In this document: positions 6,638 through 51,795 of the stretch, piece by piece
How the letters are laid out: every line of letters starts with the position of its first letter
Position numbering within the stretch: the first letter of the stretch is position 1
DNA from: an uncultured delta proteobacterium
GTDB lineage: Bacteria; Desulfobacterota; Binatia; UBA9968
Direction of reading: 5' to 3'
NCBI GenBank assembly: GCA_963727625.1
Contig: CAVSHR010000004.1
Coordinates: forward strand, 1,312,001 to 1,376,000
DNA: 64,000 bases
Notes under the pieces: model-generated
What the model saw: the letters and a program-made list of their open reading frames with translations, nothing else
Databases searched by the model: none
What the model was told of the DNA's origin: nothing
Program-made: the position numbers and the translations under genes

Positions 6638-8194
6638 ATGAACCGTACGTTTATCGGGCTGATCATAGTGAGTTCGTGCTTGCTTTCACCGAACTGGATC
6701 TACGCGCAAGATTCCATTCGTGATTTGGTCGTAAAGATTCACGCGATCCACCAACGACCGGATCTTTTTCGTCCTTGGACCAAAGCCAGCCCGCAACAGG
6801 TGAAGGGCTCCGGCGTGGTGATCGACGGTAAGCGAATTCTCACCAACGCCCATGTCGTCAAGTACGCCAGCCAGATTTATGTCCAGCCGAACCAATCGGC
6901 GAGCTACATCCCTGCACGGGTCGAGGCGATGACGCCGGGCATGGATCTGGCGATCTTGAAGCTCGACGACGAATCGTTTTTCGACAATCGCGGCAGCCTG
7001 CAATTCGCCGATGAAATGCCGCGGGTCAAAGACTCCATCAATGTCTACGGCTATCCTACCGGGGGCACCGAGCTTTCGGTCACCCAAGGGATCGTGTCGC
7101 GGATCGAATACACCGACTATTATTACCAGGCGACCGGTTTGCGCATCCAGGTGGACGCGGCGCTCAATTTCGGCAATAGCGGCGGTCCGGCCGTCTCGGA
7201 CGGAAAGCTCGTCGGTCTGGTTTTCAGTTTGATTCAAAACGCGCAAAACATCGGCTATTTGATTCCGGTCGAGGAAATAAAGCTTTTCTTAAATGACGTG
7301 GCCGATGGGGTTTATGACGGCAAGCCGCAAATGTACGACTTGATTCAGACGGTCGAGAACGACGCGCTGCGCCGCCGCCTCGGTCTGCCCAAAGGCGTCA
7401 ACGGTGTCATGATCGCCCAGCCTTACAGCAGCGACCCGAACTACCCGCTGCAAGAGTGGGACGTGGTGACCAAGATCGGCGATATGCCGATCGATAGCGA
7501 CGGGAAAGTGGCGATCCGTTACGACCTGCGTCTGTCCGCTGCGTATCTCGTGCAGAAATTTGCCAAAAATGGCATGCTGCCGATGACCATCTATCGCAAC
7601 GGCCGGCTGTTAGATATCAACTTGCCGGTGCGCTCTCAAAGAGAGCTGGTCATTCCCTATTTGATGGACAAAGCGCCGCGATTTTTTATCGTGGGGCCCT
7701 TCGTGTTTTCACAAACGACGCAAGATTACCTCGATCGCCTGGGCAATCAACGCACGCCCTCCCTCGGGCGCCAGCCGAGCCCGTTGGTCACCCGGCGTTA
7801 TGACAAGCCCGCCTTCGAAAACGAAGAGCTGATCATTGTCGCCTCGCCGCTGTTTCCCAGCCGTCTGACCCGTGGCTACGATGATCCCAGCCGCGCCGTG
7901 CTGAGCGAAGTGAACGGTATCGAAGTGAAAAACCTCCGGCATCTGGTCGAGATCTTGCGCGACAATCACGACGAGCAAATCAGCTTCAAATTCGCCAGCT
8001 CCGGCGTGTTGACCCACGAGACCATGGTGTTCAATCGCGCCGACCTGATGAACGCGACGGGGAAAATTCTCGAAGAGAACGGGATTCGCTATCCCTACTC
8101 GCCGGATTTGCGCGCGGTATGGGAAACTGGACCGCAAAACGGCACCAAAGCCGCGCAGGCCGCCTGCTGCGTCGCCGCCCCGACTGCCAATTGA
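6638..8194 (+). CDS. HtrA/Deg-like trypsin serine protease with PDZ domains
   Basis: GSGVVI, TNAHVV, DLAIL, GNSGGP catalytic motifs; signal peptide; RBS AAGGAG. Confidence 0.9.
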   Translation: MNRTFIGLIIVSSCLLSPNWIYAQDSIRDLVVKIHAIHQRPDLFRPWTKASPQQVKGSGVVIDGKRILTNAHVVKYASQIYVQPNQSASYIPARVEAMTPGMDLAILKLDDESFFDNRGSLQFADEMPRVKDSINVYGYPTGGTELSVTQGIVSRIEYTDYYYQATGLRIQVDAALNFGNSGGPAVSDGKLVGLVFSLIQNAQNIGYLIPVEEIKLFLNDVADGVYDGKPQMYDLIQTVENDALRRRLGLPKGVNGVMIAQPYSSDPNYPLQEWDVVTKIGDMPIDSDGKVAIRYDLRLSAAYLVQKFAKNGMLPMTIYRNGRLLDINLPVRSQRELVIPYLMDKAPRFFIVGPFVFSQTTQDYLDRLGNQRTPSLGRQPSPLVTRRYDKPAFENEELIIVASPLFPSRLTRGYDDPSRAVLSEVNGIEVKNLRHLVEILRDNHDEQISFKFASSGVLTHETMVFNRADLMNATGKILEENGIRYPYSPDLRAVWETGPQNGTKAAQAACCVAAPTAN

Positions 8195-43470: not shown

Positions 43471-43547
43471 CGCGGGGTGGAGCAGTCTGGTAGCTCGCAA
43501 GGCTCATAACCTTGAGGTCCCGGGTTCAAATCCCGGCCCCGCAACCA
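43471..43547 (+). tRNA. tRNA-fMet (CAT), initiator
   Basis: 77-nt cloverleaf, anticodon arm CAAGG-CTCATAA-CCTTG, GTTCAAATC T-loop, encoded CCA, C1xA72 mismatch typical of bacterial initiators. Confidence 0.95.
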
Positions 43548-44607
43548 ATTCTTTCAAGGCTTTATCAACCAACGGTTCGAAAACGGTTTGATCGAGCTTC
43601 AGTCCTAGGGTCCCGCAGTAGTCCGCCTGTATCATCGCCAACGACGTTCCGCAGTATTGAGCTACGGAAAGCGGATTTTCACCCCGCTTGATTGCTTCCG
43701 TTATGAACGTGTGCCGAGTCGCGTAGAATTTTCGATGCCTAATCCCGATTTTCTTTAACGCACCGCCCCAATTGTGCTCACTCCATTTCCTCGCGTTCAT
43801 CGGTTCCCCGTTCTTGTTCACAAAGAGATGCTTAAGCCCGAGCTGGCACGAAGGAAGGATTTCCAGAACCCTTAAAACGGGCTTCCCGAACTGAATCGTC
43901 CTAGCACTGCCAAAGGTTTTAGGCCCCGACTCGCTGCCCATATATCTCGATTTGCTTATCGCTATCGTCTGCCGCTCCAAGTCTACATCGGCCCAGGCAA
44001 GCGCGGAGGCTTCAGACGGTCGCATTCCGGTATGGAACAACGTAAAGACCCAAGGGAAATAAAAGAAGTCGCTCGCAGCCCAATACGCCACAATCCTGTC
44101 CCTTTCTTCTGCCGTGAACGGATCAGGCTTGGCCCGCTGGTTGGATGGCCATCGAATATCGATAAATGGATCTCTCCCCATCAACTCCTCAAGTTCTGCC
44201 CTAGCATCTCGATAAAGCGCTCTAAATGAGCCGTCAATGACATTCCTCACAGTTTTGACACTAAGACCTTGCCGTAACAGCTGCATCCTGAATTCGGTCA
44301 ATTCGCCCGTACCAATGGCCAACAGACGCCTACTTTTGAATTTGGGCAGAATATACGCCCGAAAATGCTGGCTGTAGTCCCGAACCCGCGACCGTCTAAA
44401 CAAGGGCTCAATCTTGGTATTGATCCACGAATCGAAGTACTCCTGGACCGTCGGAGTTGGGGTTAATCCGTACGTGCCCTGGATGTACTGCTCAAGACGA
44501 TGCTGGGCTAATCCCTTTTTCGTCGTCTTAAGCGACTTCATCAGGCTTCCGTCGATCAGGTACCACATAGAGCCGCGGTCCTTACGTTGTTTTAGGTGTG
44601 GGGGCAA
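43504..44607 (-). CDS. Tyrosine recombinase/integrase (phage-type, not IntI); 3' end overlaps the tRNA
   Basis: HTGMRPSEA, PKT, FYATRHTF (YxxRH variant of HxxRH), terminal catalytic Tyr in MIQADY. The last codons (LVAGPGFEPGTSRL) are antisense tRNA sequence. Confidence 0.92.
   Translation of the reverse strand: MPPHLKQRKDRGSMWYLIDGSLMKSLKTTKKGLAQHRLEQYIQGTYGLTPTPTVQEYFDSWINTKIEPLFRRSRVRDYSQHFRAYILPKFKSRRLLAIGTGELTEFRMQLLRQGLSVKTVRNVIDGSFRALYRDARAELEELMGRDPFIDIRWPSNQRAKPDPFTAEERDRIVAYWAASDFFYFPWVFTLFHTGMRPSEASALAWADVDLERQTIAISKSRYMGSESGPKTFGSARTIQFGKPVLRVLEILPSCQLGLKHLFVNKNGEPMNARKWSEHNWGGALKKIGIRHRKFYATRHTFITEAIKRGENPLSVAQYCGTSLAMIQADYCGTLGLKLDQTVFEPLVDKALKELVAGPGFEPGTSRL
43525..43548 (+). 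repeat. attL core
   Basis: TTCAAATCCCGGCCCCGCAACCAA, identical to 49046-49069. Confidence 0.9.
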
Positions 44608-44803
44608 TTACGGCCTCCTGAAAGGGAATCTGTAATCCGTCTACAACGCGGTAAAGGGCATCGATCCGTCGCGGAGCTTCGCCCCGCAATATCTTAGCCA
44701 GGGTTTTGTTATTAACTCCACAAAGGGCACAAACGTCAACGACCTTAAGCTGCTTGGCGGCCATCGCCTGAAGGATGCGGGGAACGTTGATCGAGACGTT
44801 CAT
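44582..44803 (-). CDS. Small HTH (XRE/Cro-like) protein, possible regulator or excisionase
   Basis: 73 aa, 'VVDVCALCGVNNKTLAKILRG' HTH pattern; overlaps the integrase start. Confidence 0.7.
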   Translation of the reverse strand: MNVSINVPRILQAMAAKQLKVVDVCALCGVNNKTLAKILRGEAPRRIDALYRVVDGLQIPFQEAVIAPTPKTT

Positions 44804-44819
44804 AGACCCAGCCTAAAGG

Positions 44820-45086
44820 CTAACTAGCCTTTTTCCACCCCGTGACTATTTTCCTCAGTCCAGGTTCCCGCAGTTTTTCCATGGTCTCTTGGACGGTATC
44901 AACCACACCCTTTGCAAGGCTTTTTAGGCCATAGCGATTGACGGTTATCGCTAAATACAACAACGTGGCCGCCCGCAGGAATTCGCTAACTTTCATGTCA
45001 AGTTTTTCGGCAGCCTCTTCAAAGGCTTTTTTATCCTGCGCCGACACTCTAACCATGATCACTTCACTGCGGTCTTGTTTTTCCAT
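44820..45086 (-). CDS. Ribbon-helix-helix DNA-binding protein
   Basis: RSEVIMVRVSAQDKKAFEEAAEKLDMKVSEFLR strand-helix-helix pattern; RBS GAGGAGG. Confidence 0.75.
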   Translation of the reverse strand: MEKQDRSEVIMVRVSAQDKKAFEEAAEKLDMKVSEFLRAATLLYLAITVNRYGLKSLAKGVVDTVQETMEKLREPGLRKIVTGWKKAS

Positions 45087-45241
45087 AGCGCCTCCTCACG
45101 AGTAGATTGTGTATATCATTATAGCTCAGAGTATGTCAAGCGCTACTTTGACCGTATATAACAAGTGAACCGGAAAATAACCCGCCTATAGTTAGGGAGA
45201 TAACCCGCCGCCCCGGTCGGCTTTTGCCGGAGAAGTTTACG

Positions 45242-45270
45242 TTGACAAAACGGGCTAGTTACACGATATT
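45242..45270 (+). promoter_or_regulatory. Pc-like sigma70 promoter facing the cassette array
   Basis: TTGACA-N17-GATATT, about 90 bp upstream of the first GTTRRRY core. Confidence 0.55.
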
Positions 45271-45324
45271 TTAAACGATTCCGATTCTATCGTCGAAACC
45301 GCCGCAGGAGATAAGCCGACCGGG

Positions 45325-45362
45325 ATTTCCCGCGGCTACTGCGGGTCACTTATTAGTTAGGC
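45325..45362 (+). other. Putative attI-like site / first cassette junction
   Basis: Core GTTAGGC at 45356-45362 complements the R'' of cassette 1; no standard attC precedes it. Confidence 0.5.
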
Positions 45363-45370
45363 CAACAACA

Positions 45371-46089
45371 ATGGTTTATTCCATCCCAATTGCCATCATA
45401 CTTTTCGGAATCATTCTCATTGCTCCGACGGTCGACGAGTCAAGGTACGCAGATCCAAGTTGGCGTTGGGAATTCGAGACCGCGGACGTGTCGCGACCTT
45501 TCCGGCGATCTGTCCCGGAAATTCTACGAAGCACAGGCTAACAATTTGACTCCAGCCGCCATACGCTCGGACCATGGTGCCGCGGTAATCAGTCTCGGAG
45601 TGTCGATTGCTGCTCTCTTTCTGATGCTTCGACTTCGAACGTTTCGAGATCTGTTTCATTTAGGGACACTAGCAACTCGGCGAGGAATGTTCTGGATGGC
45701 AACCGCAGCATGGTGGGGTTGGGTTCCGGCACAGTTGCTGTGGCTGCAATATACACTTGAGCGTGGAGACTATCCGTGGTGGGCGGACAATATTGCAATC
45801 CCAATCGCAGAGGAGCGTGTTCTTTTGTGTGCTTGGTTTTCCCTTTGTGCTATGCGGTTGGTATCTCTCAACGCGCGGAGTGAGACTGCCGGTCGCCGTT
45901 TTACAAGTTCCACGGGGCTCCAAGGGTGTGGTGGCCACGGCGTTTTTAATGGTACTCCTTTCATGGTTTGTGCTCGCAGGCGTTCGGGCCTTTGGGGAAG
46001 GTGACGTGTTCACAATTCCAGTATCGGTTGTCGGGGTTTATGCAAGTGTTGCTCTCTGGGCAGCGGCGTGTGCACCGCGAGTGGCCTAA
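45371..46089 (+). pseudogene. Cassette 1: hypothetical membrane protein, two frameshifts
   Basis: ATG 9 bp after the core site. Hydrophobic pieces in three frames (MVYSIPIAIILFGIILIA / ...ERGDYPWWADNIAIP / FFCVLGFPF...APRVA*); the stop lies within R''. Confidence 0.65.
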
Positions 46090-46164
46090 CAAACGGCTTG
46101 AAACGGATCGTCGGACCGGCTCGCTGCGCTCGCTGGCCTTGTCCGTTCAGCCGTAGCGTTAGAT
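46084..46164 (+). other. attC site 1 (81 bp)
   Basis: GCCTAAC...GTTAGAT; CGGCTTGAAACGGA pairs with TCCGTTCAGCCG with extrahelical bases. Confidence 0.88.
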
Positions 46165-46178
46165 TTCAAAGGAAGCTT

Positions 46179-46803
46179 ATGACCAACTACTTTTGTCAAC
46201 TCGAGAATCAACTTCCGGCCATACAGAGCTTATCTTCTTCTGAAGGAGTAAAGGGCTTTTTTGGCCAGGAAGTGCTCCGCTTCCACTCAATTGCCGGGAC
46301 CTTGCTTGCCAACTTTTGCCTCGATGGTGGCGCCAGCGTTGATGAGCGCTACATTACGCACATCCTTGCCCGATCGTTATTGGAAAACTATTTCTGGCTC
46401 ATCTACCTGTTCGATGATCCCGCCCAAGCAGAAATTCGATATCAGCACCTGACGAACTCCTTCAAACGGGATTACTTGAAGCTAATGAATGAAGACCGGC
46501 TCCCCCAGAAGGATCAGCTCGAACCCGCAGATCCGGCTCTGGGCGAGCTGGCAGCGCGCACCCGATGTAAACAGCATGCTCGCGCAAGTGACGAACGACT
46601 ACGGAGACCGCCTTAATTACCTGTATTTCATTTACCGGATTACCAGCTTCGATACGCACGGTAAGAATTTAGGCACAGTTCTCCAGACCGTGTTCGGCAA
46701 AACATGCAATTTTCCGGTGCTTGATCTCAAGCACGTTATTGAGCTTGTTGCCAATCAATACCTTGTTATCCTCGATGGGCTCCGAAATGATCATGAAATC
46801 TAA
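46179..46803 (+). pseudogene. Cassette 2: DUF5677/HEPN-like helical protein, one frameshift near 46535
   Basis: LARSLLENY block, and YRITSFDTHG (R-X6-H) block in the second frame; the stop lies within R''. Confidence 0.6.
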
Positions 46804-46882
46804 CCGCCGCTTGAGCCGACGCCGAGCGTTGTGAGTTAATGAAGCTTTTCTGCTGTAGCGGCTCAGCGGCATGGCGTTAGCT
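46798..46882 (+). other. attC site 2 (85 bp)
   Basis: ATCTAAC...GTTAGCT; CCGCTTGAGCCG pairs with CGGCTCAGCGG. Confidence 0.85.
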
Positions 46883-46890
46883 AGCACTGC

Positions 46891-47587
46891 ATGATCACAT
46901 CGAATGTCATTCATCGCGTCTTTCGCATCCGGCACGGAGCTTCGGAGGCGACGGCGTTCACGTTAGAACTAGACGAGAGGGAGTATCTCGTCACGGCGAA
47001 GCACGTGGTCAAAGACTTGACGAACGAGCAAACGATCGACGTTTTCGGAAATGGAGCTTGGCAGCCAAGGGAAGCGACGCTTGTCGGTCACGCGGTTGGA
47101 GACCGCGACATTTCGGTCCTGGCTTTTAAGACCGTTCTGACGCCTCCGGGCCTGCCGATGCCGGCGACAAGCAAGGGTGTGATCTATGGTCAAGATGTGT
47201 TCTTTCTCGGATTCCCCTACGGCTTTGTCGGTCATTACGCATTCGGTCCGGCAAGGCTTTCCGCTACCTTTTGTGAAGAAGGCAATCGTCTCATTGCTCG
47301 ACCGAGACACCTTTCTGCTTGATGGTCACAATAACCCAGGCTTCTCGGGTGGGCCGGTCGTTTTCAGGGAAGCCGGAAAAGTAGACCTGAATGTCTTTGC
47401 AGTCGTTTCAGGATTCCAGGCAGTTAACGAGCCGGTCTACGTTGGTGACAGTCCCGTATACGCCGGCGCTGGCGAGCCCGTTGTCTTCAGGTACAACACC
47501 GGAATCATCGTAACGTGGAGTGTCGATTTCGCTGTGGAACTCATCAAGGCGAACCCGATCGGCGCGATGAGAAACGGTGCTGGCTAA
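46891..47587 (+). pseudogene. Cassette 3: trypsin-like serine protease, one frameshift near 47250
   Basis: LVTAKHVV, DISVL, FLGFPYG in frame 1; NNPGFSGGPV in frame 2; the stop lies within R''. Confidence 0.75.
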
Positions 47588-47631
47588 CCAATGGGGTGAG
47601 ACCGGCAGGCAGCTCACCCAGAACGTTATGC
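47582..47631 (+). other. attC site 3 (50 bp, unusually short)
   Basis: GGCTAAC...GTTATGC; TGGGGTGAG pairs with CTCACCCA leaving one bulged base. Confidence 0.7.
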
Positions 47632-47889
47632 CGTAACCACGCAAGGCCGTGCCGTATGTTCCAGCGTGCCTTACGCCATTCACAGCGACGTTCACGTGCC
47701 TTGCAGTGTTCTGCCACCTTGAACCTTTTTTCGGAGATCCGAAAACCCCGAACGCTAGTAAGGGGTTTTCGAAGGGATTCAAGTCATGAGCCCCAGTGCC
47801 ACGCCGGAGCAGCGCGCCGGAATCCGCCGCCCTGCTCCGCCTGTCAATGAACACGAACGGAGAAAAGCGGATTAGTCGACTTTGTAATG

Positions 47890-48096
47890 TCACAACCCCG
47901 CTCCAGGAGACATTGAGCGAAACTCATTGACGATGCCCGGTGACCCCATCATGAGAGTCACTTCACAACACACACAGTACATTTCCAGTTCGCCCTCAAA
48001 GTCCGGTATCAATTGAACCCTAATCTTGTGGCCGCGACTCCCGTGACTTACTAGACTACGAAATGAGCCGTTGAACATCTTTTGAACTTTCACCAC
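47890..48096 (-). CDS. Small hypothetical protein of the element
   Basis: 68 aa with GAGGTG RBS and a CVCC motif, downstream of rep on the same strand. Confidence 0.5.
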   Translation of the reverse strand: MVKVQKMFNGSFRSLVSHGSRGHKIRVQLIPDFEGELEMYCVCCEVTLMMGSPGIVNEFRSMSPGAGL

Positions 48097-48201
48097 TCAC
48101 CTCTCGAAATTTTCTTCCACATTTGCCTTTAAACGAACGATCTCACGTTAACCCTTGTCTGAACCCTCGCCCTTTACAGAGGCGCACCACTATTGTAAAG
48201 C

Positions 48202-48894
48202 TCAGAACAGCTCAACTATTTGACGCTCTCGTACATCGAGCAGCCTTCCTCCAAACACCGTCGAGCCCTCATTCAATAACTCTTCCCACGCAACAAGCAG
48301 ATCTTGAAAAGTGACCTCTGGCACTTCACGATCAAACTTGTAAGCGTAATGCACGTCATGGCGAACCAATCTCAACATGCGAACCATAAACTTCCAGCCT
48401 TTACCTATGGCAAATCTTGCACGCTTCCAGCTCCAGGACATCCTCACCAGTGCCCCCCGCTGATCGGCCAGGTATTGAAGAGCGAAATATCTCCCAACGC
48501 GACGAATTGAATTCTTCCCCAGATTCATCCGCTGAATATAAACAATGTACGCTCCGTGAATGACGTCCCACTGTTCGGAAAGCCAACCTTGATCGATGAT
48601 GAACGTCCGATCGCCAGCCCAGGCCCAAACCATGTGGAGAACTCCATTGCCCTCCGAGGTTTCCACCACGAACGTTTCGACTCCTTTGTAACCGAGGTCA
48701 CGTTCAACTCGCCGGCGAAGCTCTTGGAGATGGCGACGCAGGAGATGAGCCGGACCATTATCAGCAGTGGTTAGATCGATCCTCGAAATCTGACAATTAC
48801 GAGATTTTGCTTCGTAGCACCAACTTATAAGCCGGTTAAATACTCGCTTCTGTTGTTTTGTCCACGGCTTAAAATCACCCTTAGAATTCACCAC
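48202..48894 (-). CDS. Putative HUH-superfamily rolling-circle replication initiator
   Basis: Ordered motif 1 (RIDLTT), motif 2 (E..EGNGVLHMVW, only one His) and motif 3 (RYFALQYL), plus a 'WLSEQW' block; RBS AAGGAGG. Confidence 0.62.
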   Translation of the reverse strand: MVNSKGDFKPWTKQQKRVFNRLISWCYEAKSRNCQISRIDLTTADNGPAHLLRRHLQELRRRVERDLGYKGVETFVVETSEGNGVLHMVWAWAGDRTFIIDQGWLSEQWDVIHGAYIVYIQRMNLGKNSIRRVGRYFALQYLADQRGALVRMSWSWKRARFAIGKGWKFMVRMLRLVRHDVHYAYKFDREVPEVTFQDLLVAWEELLNEGSTVFGGRLLDVRERQIVELF

Positions 48895-49045
48895 AAAACC
48901 TCCTTTGCACGACAGCCAACGGTTTGATTTTGGTTAGATCAAGGGTAGCCATAGGCAGCCTTTAGGCGCTTTTCCGCTTTCGTAACTTGTTGATTTGTTG
49001 AGAACTTAGCAGTTGCAGACTGTTAACAGCAGACGCTTCGGCGGA

Positions 49046-49069
49046 TTCAAATCCCGGCCCCGCAACCAA
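49046..49069 (+). repeat. attR core
   Basis: TTCAAATCCCGGCCCCGCAACCAA, a duplicate of the tRNA 3' end. Confidence 0.9.
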
Positions 49070-49275
49070 CTTTTCCGAATAGTTAGAATACCCGCTGTGC
49101 CGATTTTGAGCGATGTTGAGCCCCTGCCGCGCGCAATAGTTCGCCTCGATCATCGCCACGCTGGTTCCTACGTAATCTGCAATCGCCTTTAGATTGTGCC
49201 CTGCCCTTACCAGCTCGGTGATGGTCGTATGCCGGCAAGCGTAGAATTTGCGGTGCCGGATGCCGAGCTTTTTCA
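49070..49275 (-). pseudogene. C-terminal relic of a second, related tyrosine integrase
   Basis: LKKLGIRHRKFYACRHTTITE...GTSVAMIEANYC vs the intact LKKIGIRHRKFYATRHTFITE...GTSLAMIQADYC. Confidence 0.85.
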
Positions 49276-49327
49276 GTTGAGAACTTAGCAGTTGCAGACT
49301 GTTAACAGCAGACGCTTCGGCGGATTC

Positions 49328-49699
49328 GTCGAGGACGTTCATCGAACGGTCGACGAACGAGAGGAGACACGGACTGTAAGGATCGCGATGGGAGATGTCG
49401 TTCAGGAGATTGCGCGGGGGAGCCGGAGTGTCCGAGAGTGTGGTGCTCAACAAGGGACGTGGTCGGCTTGGGAGCCCCGGCTCAGGGCCGAGGCGGCGTA
49501 TGTGGGGCGGGAACTGGGAGGAATTAGTTTGACGCAGGCTGCGCAGTATTTGGGGCGAGATCTGAGCACGATGTCGTTAGCGCTAACGCGTTTGGAGAAT
49601 GAGCTGGGAAGCGACGGCGAAAAGCGCAAGCGCCTGGACTCTCTTTGCGTCCGGCTGCGACAAGGGAGAAGGCGCAAATATCAAATAAGCAAAGCCTGA
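49328..49699 (+). pseudogene. C-terminal fragment of a REP-associated tyrosine transposase (RAYT) with DnaA-C-like HTH
   Basis: FVEDV...RAEAAYVGRELGGISLTQAAQYLGRDLSTMS...QISKA*; no HUH N-terminal domain. Confidence 0.55.
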
Positions 49700-50060
49700 C
49701 ACCTGGTCCCGATTAATTTTTCAGGACGCTGCGCGATCAATACGCAACGCCCGGAACAGTTATAACAAAGCCCAGCTGCGGTTGGTTAATGGAGAAAGCA
49801 GACTTTCGAGGTCGCGGGCATGAGGAATGCGGTTGGGTCGCGAATCATGTAGAAATCTAAGGCGCAATAACCGGCTAGATCGCGCTTACACCCGACCATC
49901 GATAGGATCGGCTCGCGCATGGGTGTGGGCGATGGATAAGGCGTGTGATCCCTCGAGCCGATTGAGCTCCACCTCGAGCACGAAATCGGTGTTGACCATC
50001 AAGCACCGGGGCCCGACAGAAATCGCCGGCGCCTACCGGATCCGCCAGGGGTACAGGAGG

Positions 50061-51473
50061 TCAGTCGACCTTCTTGAAATCAGCGATTTTGATTTCGTGC
50101 TTTTTCAGCAGGTCATAAAAGTCCGCTCGATATTTACCGGCCATTTCCGCAGCTCGAGCGGCTTTTCCGCCACATAGCTCCAAGACCCGAATGAGATAGT
50201 CGCGCTCGAATTCAGCGCGAGCCTGCTTCAAGGTTTTTTGCGAGTCGCGCGTTGGCAGGAGGTGGGACTGGTCCGACGCTCCGTTACCCGGGAAGCCGGA
50301 CGGCGTCTTGACCTGCAAAACCAGGTCATCCGTCACGACTTCTTTCTGGGTCATGGTGACGGCAAATTCCAAGGTGTTTTCCAACTCCCGCACATTGCCC
50401 GGCCAATCATGTTGCATCAACTTTTGCATCGCGGCGGGGGTCAGGCCGCTCACCGGTTTCTTCATCTGCCGAGAGATCTTCTTCAACAGATGTTCGACCA
50501 AATAGGGGATATCTTCGGCGCGCTCTTTCAGAGGCGGCAAAACGATCGGAATGACATGAATCCGATAAAATAGGTCCTCGCGAAAGCGATCCTGTCGCAC
50601 TTCTTCCACCAGGTTTTTCTTAGTCGCAACGACGATTCTAACGTCGACTTGAACCGGTTTTTCGCCGCCCACGGGATAAAACTGGCGTTCCTCAAGGGCG
50701 CGCAAGAGCTTAACTTGAATCGACAGGGGCATGTCGCCGATCTCGTCCAAAAATAGCGTCCCGCCATTGGCCTGGGTAAATAGCCCTTTGGTGCTTCGCA
50801 CGGCTCCGGTAAAGGCCCCCTTTTCATGTCCAAATAACTCGCTCTCGAGGAGATTCTCGGGAATTGCCGCGCAATTGATCGCGACAAAGGGTCCATCTTT
50901 GCGATTGCTCTGCAAATGGATCGCCTTGGCGATCAATTCTTTGCCCGTGCCGCTTTCGCCATGAATGTAAACCGTCGAGTCTGTCATTGCGATGCGTGTT
51001 ACGGCCTCGAGCACCCTCTGCATCTTCTCGCTCTTCGCGACGATGTTGGCGAAATCGTATTTCTCCTTGAGCATGCCCCTCAGCCGTTGATTTTCAAAAA
51101 CAAGCTTGCAGCTGTCCAGGGCCCGGCTCACCTGCAAGACCAGCTCATGGGGGTCGAAAGGTTTTGTCAGGTAGGTGTAAGCGCCGCGCGTCATCGCCTC
51201 GACCGCGCCTTCGACGCTGGCATGGCCGGTGAGAATGATGACCGGCATACCCGGCTGGAGCGCATGCAACCGCTCCATGAGTGTCATGCCATCCTGGTCG
51301 GCGAGGCGCAGGTCGACGATCGACAAATCGAATTCGCCGGTCTTGGCGATGCTCAATGCCTCCTCGCCATCCAAGGCAATGCTCACCGCGCAATTCGCAG
51401 CGCTCAGTTTTGCTTTGACAAGTTCGAGTAGATTTTGATCGTCGTCCACCACGAGAATGTTTGCCGTTGACAT
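50061..51473 (-). CDS. Sigma54-dependent response regulator (NtrC/GlrR-like)
   Basis: Receiver domain, GESGTGKE, GAFTGA, WPGNVRELEN, C-terminal HTH. Confidence 0.95.
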   Translation of the reverse strand: MSTANILVVDDDQNLLELVKAKLSAANCAVSIALDGEEALSIAKTGEFDLSIVDLRLADQDGMTLMERLHALQPGMPVIILTGHASVEGAVEAMTRGAYTYLTKPFDPHELVLQVSRALDSCKLVFENQRLRGMLKEKYDFANIVAKSEKMQRVLEAVTRIAMTDSTVYIHGESGTGKELIAKAIHLQSNRKDGPFVAINCAAIPENLLESELFGHEKGAFTGAVRSTKGLFTQANGGTLFLDEIGDMPLSIQVKLLRALEERQFYPVGGEKPVQVDVRIVVATKKNLVEEVRQDRFREDLFYRIHVIPIVLPPLKERAEDIPYLVEHLLKKISRQMKKPVSGLTPAAMQKLMQHDWPGNVRELENTLEFAVTMTQKEVVTDDLVLQVKTPSGFPGNGASDQSHLLPTRDSQKTLKQARAEFERDYLIRVLELCGGKAARAAEMAGKYRADFYDLLKKHEIKIADFKKVD

Positions 51474-51795
51474 GAGGTTTCCCTCTTTTTTCATCTCGAT
51501 TTGAGCCTTCCTCAGCTCTGGAAAAACGCTTGAAAACGGTCGGTCAGAGAAGCTGAATCCAATCGATCCGCATCGGCTTCAATCCGGATTAACGCCGCGT
51601 CCAGTGCGCGACCGATCGATGGTTTCCAACCGCGACAAACGAGAAATATTGTCCGCAAGACTTAGAACATCGCATTTTTCTCTGAATCAAGCCGCCGCGG
51701 GTGCAACCTTATCGGTAATGGAAGTCCACTAGCTGCGATGAATCGATTCGGGTCGAAATGGATATTGACGTTTCGTCTCTCATGGGCCTAGTTAA

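Follow-up and report, generated by a model that had tools for sequence, protein, structure and literature searches.

The window, the 64-kb stretch of DNA that was analysed as a whole, contains an integrative element of 5.5 kb (5,521 bp) inserted in a tRNA-Met gene between two exact 24-bp cores (Table 1). The core, TTCAAATCCCGGCCCCGCAACCAA, takes in the 3' 23 nt of the tRNA gene, and the repeat stretches to 33 nt at 91% identity. A search of the window for a third copy with up to 3 mismatches gave none, and 0 of 100 shuffles gave any match. The 10-mer AACGGTTYGA has four exact matches in the window, three of which adjoin the cores. Two lie within the 3' end of int, 23 nt from the core, and are candidate arm-type Int binding sites on the P' side; the third (48918-48927, plus strand) is in the spacer upstream of rep.

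The minus strand of the element carries RHH, HTH and int at one end and rep and ORF68 at the other. RHH is the first gene of the int operon, a gene order shared with a distant relative of the element in Nitrospira lenta (L003), and its NCBIfam MobA/RelB-type matches fall below their cut-offs. The HTH gene overlaps the start of int and encodes a candidate regulator or excision factor. Divergent promoter-like sites occur upstream of RHH (minus strand, TCGACG-17-TAAAAT) and upstream of the cargo genes (plus strand, TTGACA-17-GATATT). The cargo includes a DUF5677-like ORF (46068-46616), in a region of overlapping ORFs, and a gene for a trypsin-like protease (46891-47587), with a frameshift near 47250-47280. 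The element showed no transfer gene.

Neither ORF68 nor the gene that the preliminary description had labelled rep has a family match in Pfam, PHROGs or NCBIfam. Support for the label came from 71 homologues, in which H87, Y136, Y141 and E81 are invariant, from a match to the Rep annotated on pRKU1 and pRQ7, Thermotoga plasmids of 846 bp (28% identity over 71% of the query, E 3e-5), and from weak Foldseek matches to HUH Reps. In the ESM Atlas, 25 of 30 feature hits fall in the PF23343 REP_ORF2-G2P set. A rolling-circle (HUH-type) replication initiator is thus a plausible, and the probable, identity of the product.

Table 1. Features of the integrative element and its flanks, in window coordinates
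Feature	Position	Strand	Basis or remark
tRNA-Met (anticodon CAT), integration target	43471..43547	+	ARAGORN; Rfam RF00005, 63.9 bits
int, integrated form, tyrosine recombinase, 367 aa	43504..44607	-	Pfam PF00589; phrog_1
attL core copy, 24 bp	43525..43548	.	T-loop to acceptor end + 1 nt
Two exact 10-mers AACGGTTYGA, 11 nt apart (candidate arm-type sites)	43571..43591	+	Within int 3' end
Small HTH protein, 73 aa	44582..44803	-	Pfam HTH_26, 18.8 bits, below cut-off of 22; weak
RHH protein, NikA/MobA-like, 88 aa	44820..45086	-	Pfam PF21983, 31.7 bits (cut-off 27)
Divergent promoter-like pair	45242..45296	.	Consensus matches only; count not above shuffles
Cargo block	45390..47587	+	DUF5677-like ORF and trypsin-like protease
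ORF68, downstream of rep	47890..48096	-	ORF call
rep (probable), 230 aa	48202..48894	-	Homologues; Thermotoga Rep match; weak fold hits
Spacer, tail stop to rep GTG, 67 nt	48895..48961	-	AAGGAGG Shine-Dalgarno; third AACGGTTYGA
27-codon tail and stop	48962..49045	-	Joined to int in the circle only
attR core copy, 24 bp	49046..49069	.	Exact repeat of attL core
Second integrase, same family, C-terminal fragment with catalytic Tyr region	49070..49275	-	Sequence identity; phrog integrase hits
Exact duplicate of 52 nt from the tail region (= 48997-49048)	49276..49327	.	Repeat search

Int matches PF00589 at 45.8 bits (cut-off 27.1; residues 190-320 of 367) and phrog_1 with an E value of 7.2e-41. Its gene overlaps the 3' 44 nt of the tRNA-Met gene. 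Read on the minus strand, the attL core codes for Int residues VAGPGFE, and the last six codons and stop (43504-43524) are tRNA-derived and give PGTSRL*, so the integrated protein ends ...LVAGPGFEPGTSRL*, coded antisense to tRNA-Met. When the circle was rebuilt in silico by script from the window sequence, the Int frame ran 27 codons further, giving a protein of 388 aa with a basic tail. The tail's stop codon is at 48962-48964, 67 nt from the rep GTG at 48894. This reconstruction reproduced every number in the preliminary proposal that the att core lies inside int and yields Int forms of 367 and 388 aa, and with the geometry of the ORFs it bore out the accompanying statement that RHH-HTH-int-rep-ORF68 are collinear in the circle only.

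Free-form Int comprises arm-binding, core-binding and catalytic domains, a flexible linker, 7-8 core-coded residues and the 27-residue tail. Integration keeps the whole catalytic domain and exchanges the tail for six tRNA-encoded residues, and the catalytic and both DNA-binding domains stay within one ORF. In an alignment of 23 long forms, R193, K227, R295, H296 and Y327 are invariant, and every one precedes the core; the catalytic residues among them we presume from familiar motifs.

An open stretch of 27 codons is not in itself significant (P ~0.27 under a uniform-codon null), and the significance of the tail comes from relatives. We sorted the best 120 of 586 Int relatives by C-terminus and found 78 short tRNA-coded ends, 27 long forms and 15 truncated or unanchored sequences; PGTSRL ends 54 of the 120. 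A tail frame that is not conserved in relatives had been set beforehand as grounds to reject the proposal, and the relatives showed the opposite: in 19 of the 27 long forms, exactly 27 aa follow the G-x-G-x-E anchor (P0133 was re-anchored by eye). Under the null, the probability that a given sequence stops right at codon 28 is ~0.013. The remaining eight tails measure 13, 15, 22, 22, 24, 30, 33 and 45 residues. Six more 27-aa tails were picked by eye among 148 C-termini listed from a second library, clustered at 50%.

Mean pairwise identity among the 26 tails, that of the window included, is 25%. Nevertheless, 25 of them have A or G at position 27 and 21 have K or R at position 25. Hydrophobic residues occupy position 18 in 22 tails and position 21 in 21, and the last 10 residues carry a mean net charge of +3.2. 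What these sequences retain is the precise tail length, hydrophobic residues in an i/i+3 pattern, a basic end and Ala or Gly as the final residue, which supports the long tail as a real, conserved coding feature, although part of the conservation could stem from spacing constraints within attP. Judged from sequence, the same design recurs in a large family of environmental integrases with several tRNA targets. Tail length varies among more distant integrases that also extend into tRNA-like cores, and four long forms come from contigs of 13-27 kb, which exceed the length of a 5-kb circle. In an AF2 model of one long form (P0095), the core is confident as far as the catalytic Tyr, residues 330-377 have pLDDT <50, and a terminal helix spans 378-389; the tail is thus predicted to be a flexible appendage.

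So, what might the exchange accomplish? The preliminary description proposed that integration would silence rep and that the basic tail may alter the stability or directionality of Int. The explanation that we lean towards, with some reserve, has two parts. First, the two Int isoforms would differ in function, which we consider fairly probable, and the topological state of the element would then set the properties of its own recombinase, as with IntP and IntX of phage Mx8. If the isoforms do differ, we tentatively prefer the tail as a C-terminal recognition tag, either a degron or a remodelling signal of the basic MuA type, such that free-form Int would be short-lived or disassembled after integration and the prophage form would escape. 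Given the same difference, a need for the tail in recombination or oligomerisation is rather doubtful. The MuA sequence RRKKAI is listed as a ClpX degron in the relevant entry of PMC8138137, and a passage of PMC4557955 reports a C-terminal proteolysis signal on a mycobacteriophage Int. Second, excision would bring rep immediately behind int, without a recognisable terminator in between, and the circle would be the main source of Rep, in line with Tn916; that rep is expressed chiefly from the circle is a possibility that we hold loosely.

This second part may instead be the main meaning of the arrangement, and the tail swap secondary. The circle would then join a promoterless rep-ORF68 to the RHH-HTH-int operon, and rolling-circle replication would begin only after excision, in a Tn916-like manner, a reading that we rate as conceivable, if short of probable. 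The genes are collinear in the circle, with a 67-nt gap that includes a strong Shine-Dalgarno sequence, and neither a sigma-70-like promoter nor a terminator-like site turned up in consensus scans of the minus strand, be it in the int-rep interval or ahead of rep; these scans gave no more sites than shuffled sequence does. The organization also extends to distant relatives. L003 measures 5,056 bp, has an exact repeat of 59 bp at its ends and shows the order rep ... RHH-HTH-int-tRNA-Leu, and a Bathyarchaeia relative (L007) has the order rep ... int-tRNA-Ala. In both, int and rep flank att and rep is the first gene past it. Arm-type-like repeats occur upstream of rep here (48918-48927) and in L003, where 2571-2592 matches 7378-7399. 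However, the scans are weak evidence, being consensus-only, and the host may well use other promoter types. Chromosomal read-through into rep is possible from an NtrC-type gene (50061-51494, minus strand) or the remnant ORF at 48962-49453, with only a weak terminator-like site at 50039-50026 to oppose it, and transcription leaves the conservation of the tail unexplained.

Tn916 is the closer precedent for transcription across the joint, which is itself inferred here. As in this element, the sequence 3' or 5' of int differs between circle and integrated form, a difference that sets expression there and may do so here. The pertinent passages of PMC5812530 describe tec genes that lack a promoter in the integrated state and, once Tn916 is excised, are transcribed from the xis-int operon, and those of PMC13023037 describe ICEKp1 int promoters that are switched by state. 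Similarly, sib, distal to int in lambda, modulates Int synthesis, as outlined in part of PMC2951348. The downstream gene here is a probable replication initiator, whereas in Tn916 it is a conjugation operon.

A further reading assigns the tail to the recombination machinery, as a helix donated to a neighbouring protomer or as a DNA contact, needed for efficient attP x attB integration. A weaker or altered tail-less prophage form would then stabilise the integrated state and limit further integrations, as a ratchet of the Mx8 type. In Cre and lambda Int, segments C-terminal to the catalytic Tyr form contacts in trans, and for the tail an amphipathic helix is predicted, with hydrophobic residues conserved at positions 18 and 21, but we consider this reading unlikely. 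About 45 residues between the catalytic Tyr and the tail are predicted to be disordered, and the conserved last residue and exact end point would suit a free-C-terminus signal better than a docking helix. Nor is the Int family close to any phage Int: all 565 matching records have <60% identity (best 31.8%), and Mx8 is absent from the 12 phage matches listed.

Mx8 IntP to IntX is the closest precedent for the C-terminal change. Its attP lies within int, and integration creates a new 3' end and another C-terminus without inactivating the enzyme, according to the passages concerned in PMC6070905 and PMC4383910; the former adds that recombination with different attachment sites is altered, and Mx8 and SSV integrases are both described as reaching across attP (PMC4383910, Islander paper, in the relevant part). 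Here, unlike in Mx8, 27 residues are swapped for six, the carrier is a 5.5-kb plasmid-like element rather than a phage, and conservation of the tail extends over a family that uses several tRNA targets. The target of Mx8 is also a tRNA gene, and its C-terminal exchange is much larger than 27 for six. The tail-swap design is known from Mx8, and is here common to a family that keeps the 27-residue tail in the free form only.

Might the switch be historical, and this copy no longer excise? The frameshifted protease gene, the overlapping ORFs in the DUF5677-like region and the rearranged attR flank, which holds an int remnant and a duplication of 52 nt, would fit a copy in decay. Against this, int, rep, RHH and HTH are intact, the cores are identical (24/24 nt), and the frameshifts may be sequencing errors. 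A near-identical copy is on a 5,471-bp contig, near the size of the element, with Int identical over 321/321 aa and a near-identical protease. A dead relic is improbable. Very unlikely is a by-product of compaction, with int running into attP, a functionally equivalent short form, and a tail kept for reasons unrelated to the integration state, such as folding or solubility, or because attP tolerates no indels. In its favour, overlap of int with a tRNA-like core is common, since many distant integrases end in antisense-tRNA residues (e.g., ...PTGFEPVLPA, ...GLEPGTNRL), the monomer model predicts the tail with low confidence and undocked, and the int of L003 stops 42 nt before tRNA-Leu, so the element type works without an overlapping int. 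Against it, the 19 and six tails have stayed open for exactly 27 codons, with chemistry conserved at 25% identity, which points to selection on the protein, and losing a selected segment at each integration would hardly be neutral for the integrated form.

The precedents offered in the preliminary description, SSV-type integrases and mycobacteriophage repressors, fit less closely than Mx8 and Tn916. In SSV-type archaeal integrases att is also inside the integrase gene, which integration alters, and the review PMC8371274, in its section on these enzymes, finds self-disrupting recombinases only in archaea. There int is split and inactivated, whereas here the catalytic domain is whole in one ORF after integration, which rules out an SSV-type split; this is a bacterial case without disruption of the enzyme. 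In the mycobacteriophage BPs and its relatives, integration likewise removes a C-terminal segment of a protein coded across attP, and that segment is a degradation tag; their Int also has a C-terminal proteolysis signal (in the relevant part of PMC4557955). However, their attP falls within the repressor gene and integration leaves the Int tag in place, whereas here the integrase itself is changed and, unlike for the repressor tag, a degron role of the tail is hypothetical.

The element resembles pSAM2-type AICEs in being small and tRNA-integrating, with a tyrosine Int, a small candidate regulator or excision gene and a probable rolling-circle Rep. The gene order in pSAM2 is rep-xis-int-attP and integration does not uncouple rep, whereas the order here is int-attP-rep. 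The part of PMC2440964 on these elements places rep, xis and int of pSAM2 in one operon and attP of AICEs directly downstream of int. By the searches made, the Rep here is unrelated to AICE Rep, and its best annotated match is the Thermotoga pRKU1/pRQ7 Rep.

The attR flank is not plain chromosome: the first reading overlooked a second integrase there. Its fragment directly adjoins the attR core on the right, shares the reading frame of the tail, and is 86% identical to P0135, one of the Int relatives, and 54% identical to the int of the element. By these identities, the flank is a remnant of an earlier, related element. A 52-nt duplicate of the tail region follows the fragment.

The 5,521-bp element is bounded by a 24-bp exact repeat, the core, which has no further match in the window even with three mismatches allowed (0 of 100 shuffles gave any match). 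Its recombinase, Int, belongs to the tyrosine recombinases (Pfam Phage_integrase PF00589 over residues 190-320, 45.8 bits, cut-off 27.1; PHROGs phrog_1 integrase, E 7.2e-41). When the circle was rebuilt by script, the int frame passed through the core and 27 further codons to give a protein of 388 aa, stopping 67 nt before the GTG of rep, and this GTG is preceded by a strong AAGGAGG Shine-Dalgarno sequence. The preliminary description had proposed that excision swaps the Int tail and joins rep to the element's operon, so that integration would silence rep, and all of its figures for the int frame, the tail and the gap to rep were reproduced in silico. Within the cargo block, the trypsin-like protease gene lies in two overlapping frames, with a frameshift near 47250-47280 that is either real or a sequencing error; relatives (P0340 and P0341) are one uninterrupted protein of 231 aa. 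Two further overlapping cargo ORFs, the first weakly DUF5677-like, may be another frameshifted gene (46068-46803).

Features of the integrative element and its right flank (window positions; minus-strand genes are written from start to stop where so given)
Feature	Position	Strand	Remarks
tRNA-Met(CAT)	43471-43547	+	sole tRNA gene of the window; ARAGORN annotation; Rfam 63.9 bits
int	43504-44607	-	367 aa; overlaps the 3' half of tRNA-Met by 44 nt; C-terminus LVAGPGFEPGTSRL, then stop
core, attL	43525-43548		24-bp exact repeat
AACGGTTYGA, left sites	43571-43591		exact copies at 43571 and 43582
small HTH gene	44803-44582	-	below Pfam cut-off
RHH gene	45086-44820	-	NikA-like, Pfam 31.7 bits, cut-off 27
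15-nt direct repeats	45172-45209		GGAAAATAACCCGCC and GGGAGATAACCCGCC, 23 nt start to start
promoter-like site	45296-45268	-	upstream of the RHH gene
cargo block	45390-47587	+
cargo ORF	46068-46616	+	weakly DUF5677-like
cargo ORF	46489-46803	+
protease gene	46891-47587		trypsin-like
ORF68	48096-47890	-	after rep
rep	48894-48202	-	GTG start at 48894; tRNA-distal end of the element
AACGGTTYGA, right site	48918-48927		exact copy at 48918
stop of circle-form int	48962-48964	-
chimeric ORF	48962-49453		163 aa
52-nt duplicate, first copy	48997-49048		part of the tail region
core, attR	49046-49069		24-bp exact repeat
second integrase, C-terminal fragment	49070-49275		right of the attR core
52-nt duplicate, second copy	49276-49327
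135-aa ORF	49292-49699	+	overlaps the integrase remnant

Could the tail be a chance open frame? Taken alone, 27 codons without a stop are unremarkable (P about 0.27), and the preliminary description had set conservation of the tail frame in relatives as a test of its proposal. A search of a large protein collection with Int returned 586 relatives, and the C-termini of the best 120 were classified by the residues that the tRNA-like core encodes (anchor G-x-G-x-E). Short ends, which stop 3-9 residues past the anchor in antisense-tRNA sequence, make up 78 of the 120; 54 of these read PGTSRL, exactly as in the window, and the others (PVLPA, PVLSA, PLLPA and similar) point to other tRNA targets. 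Long tails occur in 27, and the C-termini of 15 are truncated, frameshifted or anchor-less. The tail is exactly 27 residues long in 19 of the 27 long forms (18 by script, plus P0133, where the script had misplaced the anchor and the true tail has 27 residues); the remaining eight tails have 13, 15, 22, 22, 24, 30, 33 and 45 residues. At least six more 27-residue tails were picked by eye from 148 C-termini examined among 150 listed matches, after a profile of 23 long forms had been run against a 50%-clustered library.

The 26 tails of this length, that of the window included, share a mean pairwise identity of only 25%. Their chemistry is position-specific: Ala or Gly at position 27 (25 of 26), Lys or Arg at position 25 (21 of 26), a hydrophobic residue at positions 18 (22 of 26) and 21 (21 of 26), and a mean net charge of +3.2 over the last ten residues. 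Under a uniform-codon null, a stop precisely at codon 28 has a probability of ~0.013 per sequence; set against this, the recurrent length and the position-specific chemistry mark the tail as a conserved coding feature. On sequence comparison, then, conservation of the tail goes well past what chance would give, which rules out a chance ORF, and members of the Int family either carry the tail or have tRNA-encoded residues in its place. More distant integrases from the same clustered-library search also enter tRNA-like cores, with tails of varied length, so that overlap of int and core is as such common and it is the 27-residue tail that sets the closer family apart.

The exchange is predicted to leave the enzyme fold alone. 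P0095, a natural long form, was modelled with AlphaFold2 (23-row alignment, mean pLDDT 80.5); the model has an N-terminal domain of beta-strand and helix, which can be read as arm-binding, followed by a helical middle domain and a catalytic domain that is confident as far as Tyr327. Beyond it, residues 330-377 fall below pLDDT 50 and a short terminal helix occupies 378-389, suggesting that integration would exchange a flexible appendage. A complex prediction between A2 residues 140-332 (catalytic domain) and 345-390 (tail) gave a score of 0.02 and a mark of 0.32, which carries no weight either way. R193, K227, R295, H296 and Y327 (numbering of the long-form alignment) are invariant in the 23 long forms, and among them are the residues that we take, from familiar motifs, to be catalytic. 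In the 367-aa Int of the window, the corresponding segments ATRHT and ADYCG precede the core, and the integrated form keeps all five residues.

So, to which known switch does this correspond? In SSV-type elements, integration splits and disables the integrase, as a passage in PMC8371274 describes; here only the 27 residues past the core are exchanged and the domains stay intact, and the intact catalytic domain rules out a split of that kind. In mycobacteriophage BPs, according to a section of PMC4557955, the repressor loses a degradation tag on integration, and BPs Int has a C-terminal proteolysis signal of its own. Here attP lies in int instead, and integration leaves the RHH and HTH genes as they are. 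The closest likeness is to the Myxococcus phage Mx8, whose attP lies inside int and whose integration alters the Int C-terminus with no inactivation, in the account excerpted from PMC6070905; the Islander paper notes that Mx8 and SSV integrases reach across attP (PMC4383910, in part). In the window, too, the attP core sits within the int ORF, and integration gives int a new 3' end and keeps the catalytic domain. Phage records that matched Int number 565, all at <60% identity; Mx8 is absent among the 12 matches listed, and the best phage match among those listed reaches 31.8% (Acidovorax phages). The likeness is one of design, not of descent. In the open-access literature searched, neither this Int family nor a conserved Int tail that integration erases is described, and the closest systems there for a tail-type switch were BPs and KplE1. 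We class the arrangement as an Mx8-like C-terminal isoform switch, shared throughout a family of integrases that target tRNA genes and are carried by small integrative elements.

A more specific reading, which we consider rather unlikely, is that the tail is a C-terminal tag that integration erases from the recombinase: a basic, MuA-like signal that an unfoldase, for instance ClpX, would recognise, family-wide and shared across several tRNA targets. In MuA transposase, RRKKAI is listed as a basic C-terminal ClpX signal in a portion of PMC8138137, and in our own comparison by eye the tail ends RKRKSA, RRRKVG and KRAKSA resemble it. Such a signal would either destroy the free form of Int or dismantle the Int-DNA complex after strand exchange. 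As integration itself would delete the tag from the gene, the lifetime of the enzyme would follow the topology of the element directly. The conserved 27-residue tail of the isoform switch is a precise, testable handle. If the isoforms do differ, the family would be a compact natural case of a recombinase gene that records its free or integrated state without a separate regulator. The two ends also offer a simple signature in metagenomes, with 27-aa tails for free copies and tRNA-encoded ends for integrated copies of these elements.

The other half of the proposal concerns rep, which matches no family of Pfam, PHROGs or NCBIfam at E <= 0.01 and has 71 homologues without informative names. In tblastn against PLSDB, it matches nothing but the protein annotated as Rep on two 846-bp Thermotoga plasmids, pRKU1 and pRQ7 (E 3e-5; 28% identity, covering 71% of the query), and in the ESM Atlas the PF23343 REP_ORF2-G2P set takes 25 of its 30 feature hits (score 0.97). 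An AF2 model of the rep product has high confidence (pLDDT 88.9), and Foldseek found no match for it in the PDB at E <= 0.001. The top match, eEF1B-gamma, is unrelated; the other weak matches are HUH nucleases, led by the SIRV1 ORF119 Rep (1.7e-3), with circovirus, nanovirus and parvovirus Reps and RepB weaker still (0.05-0.17). E81, H87, Y136 and Y141 do not vary across 35 sequences, and the LHMV motif holds one His only. The distant Rep match, the ESM Atlas result, the weak fold matches and the invariant residues argue moderately for rep as a probable rolling-circle initiator, and elements bearing these integrases probably replicate by rolling circle.

A profile search of genome contigs with the Rep alignment found 10 loci, in MAGs of Verrucomicrobiota, Nitrospira lenta, Bathyarchaeia and Thermoplasmatota. 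This Rep-like family is unnamed in the libraries searched and distantly like the pRKU1/pRQ7 Rep; the present work gives a name to a widespread, hitherto unannotated family (Nitrospirota, Verrucomicrobiota, Bathyarchaeia). None of the 10 loci holds a close relative of the element's Int, and tblastn of its Int, HTH, RHH and ORF68 against them returned nothing at E <= 1e-3. In N. lenta (L003), an exact 59-bp repeat (2396-2454 and 7452-7510) encloses a 5,056-bp element in the order rep, cargo, RHH, excisionase-like HTH, int, tRNA-Leu; its int is of another lineage and ends 42 nt short of the tRNA. In the Bathyarchaeia locus L007, rep comes first and int later, adjoining tRNA-Ala. No tRNA was found at L001 or L002, both also Rep loci, and no direct repeat of >=20 nt at L002. 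Together with the window, L003 and L007 show that int last before att, and rep first after it, is a conserved order among elements with this Rep, and that the overlap of int with att is not conserved across them.

Short repeats also flank the cores. Three of the four exact copies of AACGGTTYGA in the 64-kb window do so, one set inside the 3' end of int and the other just upstream of rep. With one mismatch there are 16 copies in the window against 9.6 expected, a total not above chance (3 of 100 shuffles reached 16), so that only the clustering of the exact copies at the cores is suggestive. L003 carries a 22-nt direct repeat on both arms (2571-2592 and 7378-7399, with the site stretch running to 7410). 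The repeats of both elements are candidate arm-type Int sites, and if they are such, the region upstream of rep belongs to attP.

How would rep be read? Consensus scans for sigma-70-type promoters and for terminators, with counts not above those of shuffles, gave a promoter-like site upstream of the RHH gene; for the minus strand of 48895-50300 and for the int-rep interval they gave neither promoter-like nor terminator-like sites. These results fit transcription of rep from the int operon in the circle. The two 15-nt direct repeats lie between the RHH gene and a divergent promoter-like pair, and are possible operator sites. In pSAM2-type elements the gene order is rep-xis-int-attP, so that integration would not uncouple rep. 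A section of PMC2440964 places the rolling-circle Rep and xis-int of those elements in one operon. In Tn916, excision is needed before genes past the joint can be transcribed from the int operon (PMC5812530, in part), promoter use in ICEKp1 depends on state (abstract of PMC13023037), and in lambda the sib site, distal to int, modulates Int synthesis (from an extract of PMC2951348). Besides the isoform switch, the element may link rep to the int operon in the manner of Tn916. Both halves of the proposal thus have clear precedents, in Mx8 and Tn916, which had already established each of them, and no new principle is involved.

The right end of the element has a history of its own. Next to the attR core lies the C-terminal piece of another integrase of this family, 86% identical to the relative P0135 and only 54% to the element's Int. 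This remnant rules out attR as a simple chromosome junction, and since it is in frame with the tail it creates the chimeric ORF of the window. Next comes a repeat, without mismatch, of 52 nt from the tail region, ending 3 nt into core sequence before unrelated DNA; no third core occurs in the window. Identity is complete over the 52 nt but only about 71% between the int pieces. The stretch 49070-49327 looks like what an earlier family member at this tRNA left behind after rearrangement. The plus-strand ORF that overlaps it matches a LysR-type HTH weakly (20.2 bits, under the cut-off) and is probably a further gene fragment.

A near copy of the element is found among the relatives. P0073, on a 5,471-bp contig, is the same as Int over 321 of 321 residues and is then frameshifted into the 52-nt repeat in another frame; from its C-terminus, about 53 nt, the whole core included, are missing from that copy. 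The protease P0341, near-identical to that of the element, is also on a contig of 5,471 bp, a length close to that of the element. The contig may reflect noisy assembly or a free, core-less copy of the element.
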